This document shows, one piece after another, positions 43,522 through 49,396 of a stretch of 64,000 bases of DNA. This DNA comes from Mobula hypostoma. Taxonomy: Eukaryota. The notes beneath the pieces are model-generated. The model had not been told where the DNA came from. It saw nothing but the letters and a program-made list of their open reading frames with translations, and did no database searches. The stretch is from contig NC_086097.1 of assembly GCF_963921235.1 (NCBI RefSeq), forward strand, positions 62,622,001 through 62,686,000. Reading direction: 5' to 3'. Position 1 is the stretch's first letter; every line of letters starts with the position of its first letter. Both the position numbers and the translations under genes were made by a program.

Positions 43522-43731
43522 GATCTGATCATGTGCAATTGCCATTGATTTACAGAATTCTCTAAAAACTAACACATGTCCCTGAAGGACATCCTGGTCC
43601 TGAGCTTTGACAGGGGTCTTAACCCAATCTGTGTCCTCTGAGAAGAGGACCCCCACAAAAGCTATGATGAATCTAAGGGAAAGATACCCCCAGGGTGCCC
43701 AAGACGGGGGGAGGAAGAGCACCCCAGTCGG

Positions 43732-46700
43732 ATGGACACAACGACATCAGACCTAGTAAATGAACAAATGACGATGAGGGAGCAGTGTGCATGTGGTAAA
43801 ATCTGCAAGAACGATTACGGCTTGAAGATCCACCAAGCGAGGATGAAGTGTTTGATGGGAGCAGGAGCAGCACAACGCGCAGTTGTCCAACCTGGTGAGA
43901 TGAAGGAGGGGCCAGGCCCAGAGTCACCCCATAGTGCCCAGAACCTCCAAGTGTTACAAGCTAATCCCTCTAACATGAAGTCTAACAGGAGTCGGATCAA
44001 ATGCCTTGCAGCTAACATGACTTCACTGCGGAAGCAGTTTGATGAAGATGTTAACCAAATTCTGGAGGCAACAGTGAAGGGAGGAGTTGATAGGAAGCTG
44101 CAAGCCATGACAACAATTATTGTCAGTATCGCAGCTGAACGGTTCGGAGGAGAGGAGAAGGAGGACTCCAAAACATCTTACTCGAAGAACCAAAGAGCAT
44201 TGAGGATCCACAACATCAGGCAGGAGATGAAAGCGCTGAAGTCCTATTACGAGGAGGCAGGAGAAGAGGAGCGCATTGGCTTGGCCCAGCTGATGTGCAT
44301 TCTATGAAAGAAGATCAGGGTCCTCTGCTGGGCAGAGTGGCATCGGAGGCGGCGTCGTGAAAGGGCTCGAAAACGTGCTGCCTTTATCGCCAACCCCTTC
44401 AAGTTCACCAAGGAGTTGCTGGGGGAGAAGCGCAGTGGGAAACTGGCCTGTTCGCAGGAAGACATAGACCAACATCTGAAGAAGATATATAATGATCCTG
44501 AAAGAGAGCAGGAGTTGGGAGAGTGCGACATCCTAATAGACCCACCCGAACCAGATGTGCAGTTCGAGATGTCAGAGCTGCAACTAAAGGAAGTCAGAGA
44601 GGTTGTCCGCAAAGCAAGGGCAAGCTCGGCTCCCGGACCAAGCAACACCTCGTATACAGTGTACAAGAACTGCCCCAAACTCCTGCTGCATCTGTGGAAG
44701 ATCCTGAGAATCTTCTAGAGAAGGGGGAAGATCCCAGAACAGTGGAGAGTGGCTGAAGGGGTGTGGATCCCGAAGGAGGAAAATGCCACCCAGATAGATC
44801 AGTTTGGCATCATCTCCCTGCTGTGTGTCGAGGCGAAGATCTTCTTCAGTGCCGTTTCTAATCGGCTGTGCACCTACCTGGCAAAGAACACCTATATTGA
44901 TACATCAGTCCAGAAGGGTGGCATTTCAGGGATGTCAGCTGTCTGGAGCACATCAGTGTGGTGACACAGCTCATCAGGGAGGCCAGAGAGAACAAGGGCA
45001 ACCTGTCAGTGTTGTGGCTCGACCTGGCAAATGTATATGGCTCCATTCCGCACAAGCTGGTGCAGCTCACACTGATCAAATATCACATCCCCAGCAGAAT
45101 CAGAGACCTTATCGCTGATTATTACAGCAACTTCATGATGAGGGTCTCCTCAGGAGCAATTACATCAACTTGGCACAAGGTGGAGGTCGGCATCATCACA
45201 GGGTGCACTATCTCAGTGACACTGTTCTCCCTAGCCATGAACATGCTCACTAAGTCTGCTGAACCAGAGTGCAGAGGACCCAGAATGAATTCCGCTCAAC
45301 GGCAACCACCTATCAGGGCATTCATGGATGACCTCACAGTCACCACAGAATCAGTCCCAGGCTGCCGGAGGATTCTGTAAGGGCTTGAAAAGCTGGTGGA
45401 GTGGGCCCGGATGCATTTCAAACCCGCCAAATCAAGATCGATGATGCTGAGGAAAGGGAAGGTGGAGAACAAGTTTCGGTTCAGCATCACAGGCACAGCC
45501 ATCCCAACCATCACAGAAAAGCCAGTCAAGAGCTTAGGCAAAGTTTTTGACAGCTCTTTAAGGGACACAACATCCTTTCGGGCAACCTGCACCGAGTTGG
45601 ATGGCTGGCTGAGATCTGTGGACAAATCTGGCCTACCTGGGAAGTTTAAAGCCTGGGTGTATCAGCATGGCATTCTTCCCAGAATCCTGTGGCCCCTCCT
45701 TGTCTATGCAGTTCCGATCTCGACAGTCAAAACCTTAGAGAGGAGGGTTAGCAACCACCTCAGGAGATGGCTGGGGCTGCCAAAGAGTCTGAGCAGCATC
45801 GCACTTTATGAACACCACAACAAACTGCAACTGCCCTTCAAATCCTTGGGGGAGGAATTCAAGGTAACAAGTGCCAGGGAAGTGATACAGTCTAGGGACT
45901 CAAGTGACCCGAAGGTGGCTAGAGCAGGACTCCAAGTGAGGACTGGCAGGATGTGAAGGGCAGAGGAAGCTGTTCAGGAGGCAGAGGCAAGGCTGTGTCA
46001 CAGGAGGCTGGTGGGAGTGGTCACACAAGGCAAAGCTGGGCTAGGATCCTTTCCAACTCCCCAAATGGACACTAGAGGGAAGGAAAGGTGTCGTCTAGTT
46101 CAGGAGGAGGTGAGAGCAGTAGAGGAGGAGACGAGAGCCTGCAAGGCATGGGAATGAAGCAACAGGGAGCTTGGACAAGATGGGAGAATGCGGTTGAGAG
46201 GAAAGTAACTTGGGCTGAACTTTGGAAAGCCAAACCACGCCACATCCAATTTCTCATCCGGGCAGTGTACGATGTGCGTCCAAGCCCATCAAACCTGTTC
46301 ACATAGGGCAAGGCAGAGTCATCTGCATGCCCACTGTGCTCCAAGAGAGGAACCCTGGAGCACATCTCAGCAGCTGTGCAAGGGCACTTGGTGAGGGACG
46401 GTACAGGTGGAGGCATGATCAGGTCCTGAAGACCATCGCTGAAGCCGTCAGTGTAGGAGTTGAGTGGGCGAAGCGGTCCCGACCCTCCAAGCAGACCATT
46501 GCCTTTGTCAGAGCCGGGGAGCAGCCAATACCCGCCAAAAGAACGTCTGCAGGCATCCTGACCTCTGCAAGGGACTGGCAGCTGTTGGTGGACCTCGAAC
46601 GGCAGCGGAAGTTCCCCAACCATATCGCAGCCACCACCCTATGACCAGACATTGTCCTATTGTCTGAGTCTACTAAGCAAGTGGTGCTGCTGGAGCTGAC

Positions 46701-46981
46701 AGCCCCATGGGAAGATCGCTTGGAAGAGGTCTTTGAAAGGAAGCTCTCCAAGTACACAGGACTGGTCAGCAACTGTCAGCAGGCTGGATGGAGAGCGAGG
46801 TGTCTCCCAGTGGAGGTTGGTTGTAGGGGATTCGCCCCCCCGTTCCTTCGTTAGAGCCTTCAGCAATTTGGGCATCAAGGGAGAGAGGAAGAGGAGAGCC
46901 ATCCGCAGTACCACCGATGCGGCAGAGAGGGCCTCAAGATGGCTGTGGCTCAAAAGAGGGGAGCCATGGAGTCATAAGTAG
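43732..46981 (+). pseudogene. HERO-like single ORF, disrupted
   Basis: In-frame stops ending at 44307, 44718, 45380, 45956, 46306 and 46644, plus frameshifts near 44940, 46140, 46365 and 46840. Confidence 0.85.
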
Positions 46982-46988
46982 CTAGCCA

Positions 46989-47106
46989 TCTGGACACAAG
47001 CTGGGGTCTGATCAGCCCCGGCTGGGTCACCTGGAGAAGGTTGTATGATGTTGAAAGACCCGAAACACCCGATGATTCCAGGAAGATCACTGAAGATGTG
47101 TCCAGA
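46989..47106 (+). ncRNA. Structured 3' UTR RNA with hammerhead-like core in non-circular order (candidate)
   Basis: GUA at 47043-47045, GAAAC at 47062-47066 and CUGAAGA at 47090-47096, with matching helices (see findings). Confidence 0.55.
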
Positions 47107-47254
47107 AGCATCAATAGATGTATGTACACAGCAGGTAACAATTAGATCATGGGGTAGGGACAAGTTCAACCCCACAAAATAACTAAGAAGACTTTTGGTG
47201 AATGACAAAGTCACATCTCCAGGTTTGCTGTGACATCAAGAATCACAGAGACGC

Positions 47255-47525
47255 AAAAAAGACTGCAATGGTGGAGTCGAGCAACAACAAAACTGCTGGA
47301 AGAACTCAATGAGTCAGGCAGGATCAGTGGAAGGAAATGAGCAGTTGATGTTCTTTCAGTCTCATACCCTTCATCAAGACTGGGAAGAAAGAGGGCAGAA
47401 GCTGGAATAAAGGTGGGTGGGAAGGGGAGGAGTGCAAAATGGCAGGTGATAGGTGAATTCAGAGGAGTGGGAGTGGGTAAGTGAGAACAATGTGAGAAGC
47501 TGGGAGATGATAGGTGGAAGAAGCA
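47255..47525 (-). mobile_element. Old Penelope-like 3' end
   Basis: CTGCTGGAAGAACTCA...CCCTTCATCAAGACTG followed by a purine-rich tract. Confidence 0.6.
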
Positions 47526-49396
47526 TCTCCATGCAGGCAGGAAGCACAAGGGCCAGTGACTCTGAAGGTACATGGGTGTTCAAGACCAGAATTCAAAGCT
47601 TAGTGTTCATGGTGCCATCATCTGTGAGTCTGGAGATTGAGTCCTGGAGCTCGAATTCTCATTTATCTGCATCAGTGAACCCTGGAGTTGATACCATTGA
47701 TCAAAGGGCAAAGGTCGATCAGATGTACAGGTTAAGAGCTGGTGGCCGGAGCCCCGAGTCTGTGAATCTCTGAAAATTGAAGGCCTAATGTCTGCGAGTC
47801 TGAGTCCACTGGAAGCTGGAGGCCTGGGGCTGGAGGACTGTATTTGTGCATGGATGGGAGGAAGCGAGGAACAGGGCTTGTTTTGCTGTTGTTTTGTTGC
47901 TTGTTGTGTTCTGTTTTGTTCTGAAATGAAAAAGATGGAATATGTTAGGGGAGGGCAGTAGACCATGGAATAAAGGAGAGGAGGATGGAGCGCATTTCAT
48001 TAAACAATTGAAGCATTTTAAATATTACAACCAAAGAAACAAATATCTGAAAATATTTAAAGCACTTGACTGTCACCACAAACAGCATTTTATTAAGAAA
48101 CAATGCAAGTTGCCTTTTTTTAAAAAAAAACATTCTTTCAGAGGTTCATGGATCTGAAGCTGGCACAGGATCTGAGAGTAGAAAGCCCAAGGTAAACACT
48201 GCAGAAATCCAGCAAGCATCTGCCACATCACCGGGTGCCAGGCAGCGTTAGCAGAGGAGCACAGCTGAGGTCACTGGTAGGGTTCACCCAGCATGGTTAC
48301 ACCTGTATCTGCATGGGAGTCTCAAATCCAATGGTCTGATAAGGATAGATATCCATTGTTGCATGTACACAGTTCAGTAAAATCTGTCTGTATCAATAAT
48401 GGAGTTTTCTTTGCAAGTTAAGACCCATCACAGGCTTCAGTTGTCAACACAACCTTGGGAATGCACTTTTATCAACAAGCTCTCATTAGTTGATGGTAAA
48501 AAGAGTAATATTTCATGTTTTGCTGTTCAATATGACACAGGAGATTACACAGGCATTCTATGCAAATAAAAAAAACCCTAATTCCATGGATGAACAAGCA
48601 GAGATAGCATATCATTTTCCAATGCCCCCCCACTCCCCCACCCCACAACTGCTCCAAACCCCTCAGCATATACAAATGTAGTTTATGCTGCTGGACAACT
48701 CTGCCCTTCACTGAAACTAATACAGATTTTGGCCCCTCACTACTCAGGCAGGTGTTTGGCTGTAGGCAGCAAATTTTAACATGCAGCTTGAACTGTTTTA
48801 TCTTGCACAGAATAATTTAAATGCCTTTCAAAGAAACTCTCATCCAACATCTAGAACAGTAGTAAAAATACCATGAATGATGAACAACCCATCTGTCCTG
48901 TCTGAAAGTGGAAGTACATACCACAACATAATGAATCTCCCTATTGGACTACATACATAAGCTATCAAGATCCAAGTATTTTTCAAGCAGACTTCACAAA
49001 TGAACACTAACTTTTAGCCACACATTTCTGAATAGTTTAGCTCTATTTTTTGTAATGATGAAACAAAGCACTTTAGTCTGGTTCACAAATAACAAGGTCA
49101 GTCTAATTGTATCTATATATCAGTTGAAGATTATAATGAAAATGCACTTTTATTCTCTATTAGAAGTGAGTTAGTGTTTTTCTCCATGAATCAGATGCTA
49201 ATACATTGCAATGGGACAGCCACAGCTAGCTGACATATCTATTAATCCAATACTAAATTAATTTGTCTCTAGCCTTCACTTAATTAGGCTTCTGTACTGA
49301 AATTCAGAATTATTGCTAATTTTATGTCCTTGTTCAGGCCAGGAGCAAGGCCTGCTTTTGTGGAGATTATTCAAATCTTCTACCGCAGTTAGGTAA

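Follow-up and report, generated by a model that had tools for sequence, protein, structure and literature searches.

Several non-LTR (long terminal repeat) retrotransposons carry self-cleaving RNAs at their 5' ends: the HDV (hepatitis delta virus)-like and twister ribozymes of R2, L1Tc and Perere-3 free the element RNA from its co-transcript. Classical hammerhead ribozymes (types I, II and III) are also linked to retroelements, namely Penelope-like elements and retrozymes. They combine a CUGANGA box, a GAAA box and a UH site with three stems around one junction, are unknotted three-way junctions that Rfam models find, and in Penelope-like elements sit in the terminal repeat. The window analysed here is a stretch of 64,000 nucleotides (nt) from Mobula hypostoma (contig NC_086097.1, positions 62,622,001 to 62,686,000, forward strand). 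At 46982-47131 on the plus strand it holds the 3' untranslated region (UTR) of a non-LTR retrotransposon, 150 nt long and without poly(A), which has the same boxes and probably the same three stems around one junction, but in a knotted RNA that no Rfam ribozyme model matches, and in the 3' UTR of a long interspersed nuclear element (LINE) with a restriction-like endonuclease (RLE). As with the 5' ribozymes, a self-cleaving RNA class would be carried by a LINE, although activity is here only predicted; the fold lies 3' of the open reading frame (ORF) rather than at the 5' end, with the predicted cut 86 nt inside the 3' end.

The closest described relative is the type SGC hammerhead (PMC10085705). 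In the text of that report, hammerheads are composed of blocks that are assumed to be uninterruptible, known alignments showing at most one or two extra nucleotides there; in type SGC the blocks follow one another in the order S, G, C, the linker from stem I to stem II is typically three nucleotides long, and 0-44 nt connect the far end of a fourth helix with that of stem III. Set against this description, the UTR has the same order (S 47039-50, G 47057-70, C 47085-96). In both RNAs each of the three stems crosses the other two (for stem II of the UTR, as proposed), all core letters are retained, and the linker from stem I to stem II is short (here 6 nt, and 3 nt in the relative L152). Both also have a fourth helix, which connects stems I and II at their far ends and is linked in turn to stem III. 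Here this is helix E: it starts 1 nt past the 5' strand of stem II, ends 2-3 nt before the 3' strand of stem I, and has two strands, of 2 nt and 6 nt, linking it to stem III. An earlier note on this DNA had claimed a non-circular strand order, and the order it described is the published type-SGC order. The comparison with permuted hammerheads that it called for shows agreement in order and fourth helix, and a departure in the contiguity of block C. In type SGC the chain ends lie at stem III and after the fourth helix; here those two points are joined and the chain is instead open between A9 and G10.1. The blocks described for type SGC are uninterrupted, whereas block C here is without its stem II strand, a 10-bp helix P and a hairpin HP being inserted. 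The stem sequences are unrelated to those of the type-SGC RNA HRIMA-1, whose consensus stem I is AUGU(U)/AACAU, and the host is an animal retrotransposon with cleavage only predicted, whereas the examples given in that report come mostly from metatranscriptome sequences. With block C interrupted, the RNA fails the type-SGC definition as stated there and would escape descriptors built on it.

The reading we prefer, held tentatively and at slightly less than even confidence, is that the UTR forms a hammerhead-type fold in a new permutation, predicted to cleave after A47045 and likely to double as a handle for the reverse transcriptase. The UTR RNA would fold into a hammerhead-type pseudoknotted junction that cuts itself after A47045, and the knot, a hinge, a terminal stem-loop and a 10-nt tail would together make up the handle that the element protein binds to start target-primed reverse transcription (TPRT). 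The ribozyme reading gains weight from three findings taken together: the invariant strand proposed for stem II, which is separate from the one following CUGANGA, the covariation of stem I, and the agreement of helix E with the fourth helix of type SGC. A more far-reaching version, possible but on balance doubtful, is that of a seventh natural hammerhead topology: a type SGC re-opened in the CUGANGA block, bridged by a perfect four-way junction, active in self-cleavage (or self-ligation) and long kept in the 3' UTRs of several very abundant R2-type LINE families of cartilaginous fishes.

The S-G-C arrangement itself is real and not a product of chance. Every strand named in the earlier note is present where the note placed it (Table 1), including its GCUGGGG/CCCCGGC hairpin at 47000-22. 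A descriptor of the arrangement was defined by four parts: CUGANGA after 4 nt that form perfect pairs with the four following a U-H site; C-GAAA (the C being C11.1) 15-45 nt upstream of CUGANGA; at least four of five stem III pairs; and, for stem II, a 4-bp partner at most 70 nt upstream of the strand before GAAA. It matches the 64-kb window once, at the 46989-47106 site, and not at all on the other strand. Dinucleotide shuffles of the window, searched on both strands, gave no match in 200, and 0.005 matches per shuffle when the stem II part was dropped. The folding energy of 46982-47115 is -49.1 kcal/mol on the plus strand (z -3.71), which none of 200 shuffles reaches; for the minus strand the z-score is -1.56 and 9 of 200 shuffles reach its energy.

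The plan of the UTR is found in at least five lineages of the Mobula hypostoma genome, designated A (the family of the window copy), B1, B2, C and E. Family B, made up of subfamilies B1 and B2, has about 91% identity among its copies and 64% identity to A over 1594 nt of ORF; its UTR aligns to that of A without gaps and has the invariant blocks in common. It came to light in a search with the last 86 nt of the UTR, which skips common words and returned eight candidates, a number of no use for counting. Copies of family E are about 80% identical to one another. Scanning metagenome contigs with an endonuclease alignment added two relatives with an intact ORF, L149 (85% protein identity, 761 amino acids) and L150 (76%, 474 amino acids), and two with a broken one, L152 (59%) and L151 (49%); L153 (31% identity, on a short contig without the UTR) was left out, and the same scan of viral_contigs gave no match. 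The UTR also occurs on contigs of sequencing runs from several other organisms. Throughout these lineages and contigs it is nearly free of gaps and far better conserved than the ORF, whose proteins are 49-85% identical. Variants shared among copies of families A, B and C are limited to CpG decay and a difference in helix E between the two B subfamilies.

All 11 specified hammerhead core letters are placed, relative to stems I and III, as a hammerhead needs them. In the nine aligned sequences and in family E a single base, A or C, separates stem III from stem I; this position 17 is A in families A and C, L149 and L150, and C in families B and E, L151 and L152, with U in one further contig and G in one aberrant contig (run X14 record 11). 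CUGANGA directly follows stem I in eight of the nine aligned sequences, GAA precedes A15.1 in eight of nine, the pair U16.1-A15.1 opens stem III in all nine, and in all nine C is the last base of the strand before GAA and G the first of its complement (G10.1-C11.1). N7 is A in families A and B, U in C, E and L152, and G in a contig of another species (run X14). The variation of the core thus falls on N7 (A/U/G) and H17 (A/C), the two positions that hammerheads leave free. In family A frequent changes occur only at CpG sites, G12 among them (A in 10 of 80 copies). Conservation of CUGANGA, GAAA and UH, which the earlier note had predicted, is therefore borne out across lineages with ORF proteins 49-85% identical.

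Pairing was examined in an alignment of nine sequences made with MAFFT: the window copy, L048 (the A medoid), L149, L150, L177 (the C medoid), L152, L160 (the B1 medoid), L119 (B2) and L151. Stems I and II were written as pseudoknots and the six helices of the earlier note were counted; L150, which ends 9 nt into helix P, was retained with gaps. Standard pairs fill 94.7% of 360 cells, against 29-48% when the partners are slid by 1-3 columns. Changes on both sides affect 11 of 41 pairs, a number reached in none of 500 shuffles; they are distributed over helix P (4/10), HP (3/9), E (2/6), stem III (1/6, with three further pairs changed on one side), stem I (1/5) and stem II (0/5). The stem III change is U-A to C-G in L149. 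Stem I rises to 2/5 once the 3-nt gap that MAFFT put into stem I of L152 is moved to the linker: against UGAUG/CAUCA elsewhere, L152 has UGUUG/CAACA (A-U to U-A) and L151 has UGAAG/CUUCA (U-A to A-U). At the level of sequence comparison, helices P, HP and E and stems III and I are shown to be kept by compensatory changes. Stem I forms a true pseudoknot: stem III closes a loop that contains the 5' strand of stem I, and the 3' strand of stem I is located beyond helix E. The covariation expected by the earlier note is thus found, in UTRs of this genome and of metagenome contigs, for stems I and III, and extends to the CCUGGA/UCCAGG extension, the closing helix and the hairpin that it described, whereas stem II never varies.

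Table 1. Features of the UTR and its borders, in window coordinates
Feature	Position	Strand	Evidence or remark
Stop codon TAG of the decayed ORF	46979..46981	+	ORF end ...EPWSHK-stop common to intact copies
Helix P, 5' strand (UCUGGACACA)	46989..46998	+	Pairs with 47097-47106; 4/10 pairs changed on both sides
Hairpin HP, 9 bp, loop CUGAUCA	46999..47023	+	3/9 pairs changed on both sides; adjoins P and stem II with no unpaired base
GGGUC, proposed stem II 5' strand (10.1-10.5)	47024..47028	+	Invariant 9/9; pairing proposed
Helix E, 5' strand (CCUGGA)	47030..47035	+	Pairs with 47077-82; 2/6 pairs changed on both sides
Non-bulged strand of the kink-turn-like internal loop (family majority G-G-A)	47036..47038	+	A47038 invariant; 47037 G or A
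Stem III, 5' strand GGUUGU (16.6-16.1, ends in U16.1)	47039..47044	+	One pair changed on both sides, three on one side
Position 17 (H), predicted cut 3' of this base	47045	+	A or C in aligned lineages
Stem I, 5' strand UGAUG	47046..47050	+	Pairs with 47085-89; compensatory changes in L152 and L151
Linker from stem I to stem II	47051..47056	+	6 nt here, 3 nt in L152
GACCC, proposed stem II 3' strand (11.5-11.1)	47057..47061	+	Invariant 9/9
G12, A13 and A14 of the GAAA box	47062..47064	+	Kept in 8/9 aligned sequences
Stem III, 3' strand ACACCC, starts with A15.1	47065..47070	+	Covariation count on nine sequences
Bulged strand of the kink-turn-like loop (NNY-GA-Y)	47071..47076	+	G47074 and A47075 invariant; putative assignment
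Helix E, 3' strand (UCCAGG)	47077..47082	+	Pairs with 47030-35
Stem I, 3' strand, GAUCA in the window copy, CAUCA in the family majority	47085..47089	+	80-copy comparison
CUGAAGA box (C3-A9)	47090..47096	+	CUGANGA in 8/9 aligned sequences
Helix P, 3' strand (UGUGUCCAGA), directly after A9	47097..47106	+	Pairs with 46989-98
Terminal stem-loop GCAUC-AAUA-GAUGU	47108..47121	+	In A, C, E, L149 and L152; compensatory GCACC/GGUGU in B
3' tail, element end at 47131, without poly(A)	47122..47131	+	26/29 other copies stop at 47130-47135; random columns beyond

The proposed stem II has complementary strands, GGGUC and GACCC, and we infer that 47024-28 pairs with 47057-61. RNAalifold picks this pairing without constraints, along with helix P and hairpin HP, and it is also present in the single-sequence minimum free energy (MFE) folds of the A medoid (L048) and the B medoid (L160). 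Two other assignments were rejected: GGGGUC at 47003-08 as partner of GACCC, a sequence missing in family B and in L151, and a canonical type-SGC stem II (UGUGUCC with GACCC), which gives at most two to three scattered pairs and whose strand sits in helix P.

The path from A9 through helix P and hairpin HP to G10.1 contains no unpaired base in families A, C and E, L149 and L152, and in family B there is one A-C mismatch at the top of helix P. The break between A9 and G10.1 would be bridged by a perfect four-way junction formed by the core/stem II stack, helix P and hairpin HP, in which the core/stem II stack could run continuous along the GAAA strand. Most of HP is missing in one family E-like copy (L194) and in a contig of another species (run X14 record 11); a whole lineage without HP, if one exists, would have a three-way junction.

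In a kink-turn, a regular and an irregular helix flank a bulge of three bases and the tandem sheared G-A/A-G pairs that follow it. The loop between stem III and helix E has (G/A)A opposite NNYGAY, with A47038, G47074 and A47075 kept in all lineages, and presumably fits this motif: 47071-73 would be the bulge of the loop 47036-38/47071-76, G47074 would pair with A47038, and A47075 with G or A47037. The window copy has A-A at the second of these pairs. A kink at this loop would bend helix E back until it meets the ends of stems I and II.

The element is a very abundant, 5'-truncating, R2-type non-LTR retrotransposon with a reverse transcriptase and a CCHC/PD-ExK endonuclease. The window copy is dead, because its ORF is broken: 43642-46981 is frameshifted and split into at least six frames or pieces, one of which matches RVT_1 (E 5.2e-12). 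In less decayed copies the C-terminus has the layout of R2-type elements, with CPLCSKRGTLEHILSGC as a CCHC knuckle followed by RPDIVL...LLELTVPWE...K, a PD-(D/E)xK-like nuclease; an intact ORF of 761 amino acids on a metagenome contig matches RVT_1 and, weakly, zf-RVT. What these motifs establish is a reverse transcriptase with an R2-type endonuclease; the HERO clade named in the earlier note is a putative label. The decay that the earlier note had attributed to the window copy also touches the UTR, which has two private changes relative to the family A majority: A at 47037 (G in 75 of 80) and G at 47085 (C in 77 of 80). Through the latter the fifth stem I pair is lost, a private G-G mismatch that recurs in L119. 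The 3' border of the element is sharp: similarity to the window ends at 47130-47135 in 26 of 29 other copies, which differ in their 5' ends, and columns past 47131 are random across 80 family A copies. The last 25 nt of the UTR have 1196 exact matches on many contigs of the 3.48-Gb genome, compared with none for the reversed control.

Judged by its position and by analogy, the UTR is likely the handle for TPRT: it is a conserved structured RNA, located precisely at the 3' end of a non-LTR element with an RLE, and is retained in 5'-truncated copies. The knot, of about 118 nt, is followed by one base, the terminal stem-loop, in which family B has a compensatory change from U-A to C-G, and the fixed 10-nt tail. 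Vertebrate A-clade R2 proteins are described as binding a pseudoknot-hinge-stem loop at the end of the 3' UTR (PMC11601368), and, so far as that description goes, the two UTRs agree in the succession of a 3'-end knot, a short hinge, a stem-loop and a short tail, and in keeping structure over sequence in the helices. The R2 knot is smaller; here it is larger and has a hammerhead-type core, and protein binding is only predicted. R2 is specific to ribosomal DNA, whereas this element is dispersed, as the many contigs bearing its tail show.

Several observations weigh against cleavage. An unbiased sample was formed from the first 80 matches of the last 25 nt on contig 1, of which 79 were usable; 41 copies extend past the 450 nt fetched upstream and 38 are truncated at scattered sites. 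The 5' ends do not pile up at the predicted cut, one of 79 (L094, at 47049) lying within 3 nt of it, and that copy has its 3' flank in common with three others. In 80 copies, insertions or deletions do not cluster at 47045/46. The cut site is spanned by contigs of two RNA libraries (X9 record 27 and X16 record 9); all 24 sequencing runs consist of contigs, so RNA ends are invisible in them and uncovered parts are not evidence. The scarcity of 5' ends at the cut and the RNA contigs across it imply that retrotransposed copies derive from uncut RNA, and cleavage would accordingly be a side activity or a regulated one. A cut so near the 3' end also has no obvious use for the element. Finally, there is the interruption of block C itself: the 5' strand of stem II is not contiguous with A9, G10.1 lying 72 nt upstream, and the bases after A9 (47097-106) pair instead with 46989-98 in helix P, the best supported of all the helices.

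These points are what would be expected if the UTR were a docking fold only, for the reverse transcriptase/endonuclease as in R2, with hammerhead-like letters that are structural or contact the protein, whether by descent or convergence, and with no useful cleavage. We consider this quite possible, with a probability appreciably below even. It accounts for a fold at the extreme 3' end that is common to all 5'-truncated copies, for the absence of a cleavage trace in copy 5' ends, indels or RNA contigs, and for the interrupted block C. Copies that start near 46805 and have a foreign 5' part in common suggest that the last 327 nt suffice for mobilisation in trans, and the terminal stem-loop and fixed tail after the knot recall the pseudoknot-hinge-stem loop described for R2 (PMC11601368). 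A docking fold does not, however, predict the four-helix layout of a proven ribozyme class, as described for type SGC (PMC10085705), or the fixing of 11 core letters, of A15.1-U16.1 and G10.1-C11.1 and of a non-G base at position 17, with variation exactly at N7 and H17. Nor is the missing trace of cleavage decisive: for a Penelope-like element, insertion in vitro is reported to be normal with hammerhead mutants, and no read to end at the cut site (PMC11167929), so on that precedent, as far as the report describes it, missing cut-site ends do not disprove a retroelement hammerhead. In hammerheads the fold is the active site, and a faithful hammerhead fold would for that reason be expected to cut, which counts against docking alone.

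A second group of observations bears on the fold rather than on its activity. Since stem II never varies, neither in the aligned sequences, where every other helix does, nor among copies of families A, B and C, covariation lends its pairing no support. Nested folds of helix E and stem III compete with stem II in the fold of the C medoid, and the MFE fold of the window copy pairs GGUC with GAUC in place of stem II. The covariation of stem I rests on two single copies, both with broken ORFs. Contigs of other species have CACCA and CAUGA as stem I 3' strands, one of which likely faces an unchanged UGAUG with an A-C mismatch, and in this genome 12 copies in which U87 is changed to A keep UGAUG, which is plain decay. 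A search of this genome for a compensated UGUUG/CAACA lineage found none: its 28 matches, against 4 in the control, are these 12 decayed copies, which belong to A or C, 4 family E copies and 12 unrelated sequences. L151 departs from the core, its boxes reading CUGAUUA and AAAA and its stem III having two A-C mismatches; this copy has a broken ORF, and its G12-to-A change lies at a CpG site. No Rfam ribozyme model matches 46500-47700 at E up to 10, the three matches there being chance ones to long non-coding RNAs or microRNAs. For a knotted permutation a miss by the Rfam hammerhead models is expected.

The constant stem II, the competing nested folds, the GGUC/GAUC pairing of the window copy and the Rfam miss would all suit a coincidence: a pseudoknotted fold of another kind, without pairing between GGGUC and GACCC and with boxes that are unrelated single-stranded letters binding protein. 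We hold this to be improbable. The descriptor has no match in 200 shuffles, and with stems I and III fixed by covariation the boxes lie exactly where a hammerhead has them. The GGUC/GAUC pairing is lost in the family majority, which has C at 47085, and the other stem I partners that were considered, UGAU at 47073-76 and CAUCA at 47109-13, do not track the changes in L152 and L151. That the whole pattern is an artefact of one decayed copy, as its frameshifted ORF and two private UTR changes might suggest, is refuted: thousands of copies have the same UTR, and it recurs in at least nine lineages or contigs, among them copies whose intact ORFs are 761 and 474 amino acids long.

A literature search in elasmobranch, non-LTR/TPRT and four-way-junction contexts, with the figures of PMC10085705 and bioRxiv supplements outside its scope, found no description of such a hammerhead. 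If the RNA cuts, hammerhead permutations have been enumerated by too strict a rule (three uninterruptible blocks, six orders), and searches whose descriptors follow that rule overlook real ribozymes. Vertebrate genomes would then also contain non-circular hammerhead permutations, known until now mostly from metatranscriptome sequences, and would do so in thousands of copies. The RNA handle to which the reverse transcriptase of an R2-type LINE has to bind would itself include a ribozyme fold, and the purpose of retroelement hammerheads could be studied in a tractable system. Should the reading as a seventh topology be true, interruption of hammerhead blocks is possible and ribozymes occur at the 3' ends of LINEs too. 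If the RNA does not cut, a rare ribozyme-type core has been kept as a structural scaffold for a protein.

Three minor observations concern individual copies. Many old copies of family E (L225, L227, L236, L239, L240, L241, L243 and L251) have differing internal deletions, all between GGGUC and the GAAA block, and several of the end points adjoin strands of stems II or III; the reverse transcriptase may have jumped across the bases of helices, or slippage may have followed insertion. Among the truncated family A copies, 4 of 38 (L051, L083, L085 and L094) have the same 3' flank (CTTACACCCTGAGTTAATCAGTGACAAC) and different 5' ends, which points either to a repeatedly hit target or to a longer composite repeat. 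The 5' ends of copies show a hot spot at 46802-46808, with 6 of 79 in the unbiased sample. The hot-spot copies (L003, L022, L027, L040, L060, L089 and L118), several of which have in common a foreign upstream sequence ending in ...GGAAGCTGCAAGCCATGACAACAATTATTG, probably represent a chimeric, non-autonomous element with only the last 327 nt of the LINE; in L003 and L022 about 300 nt of foreign upstream sequence are held in common.

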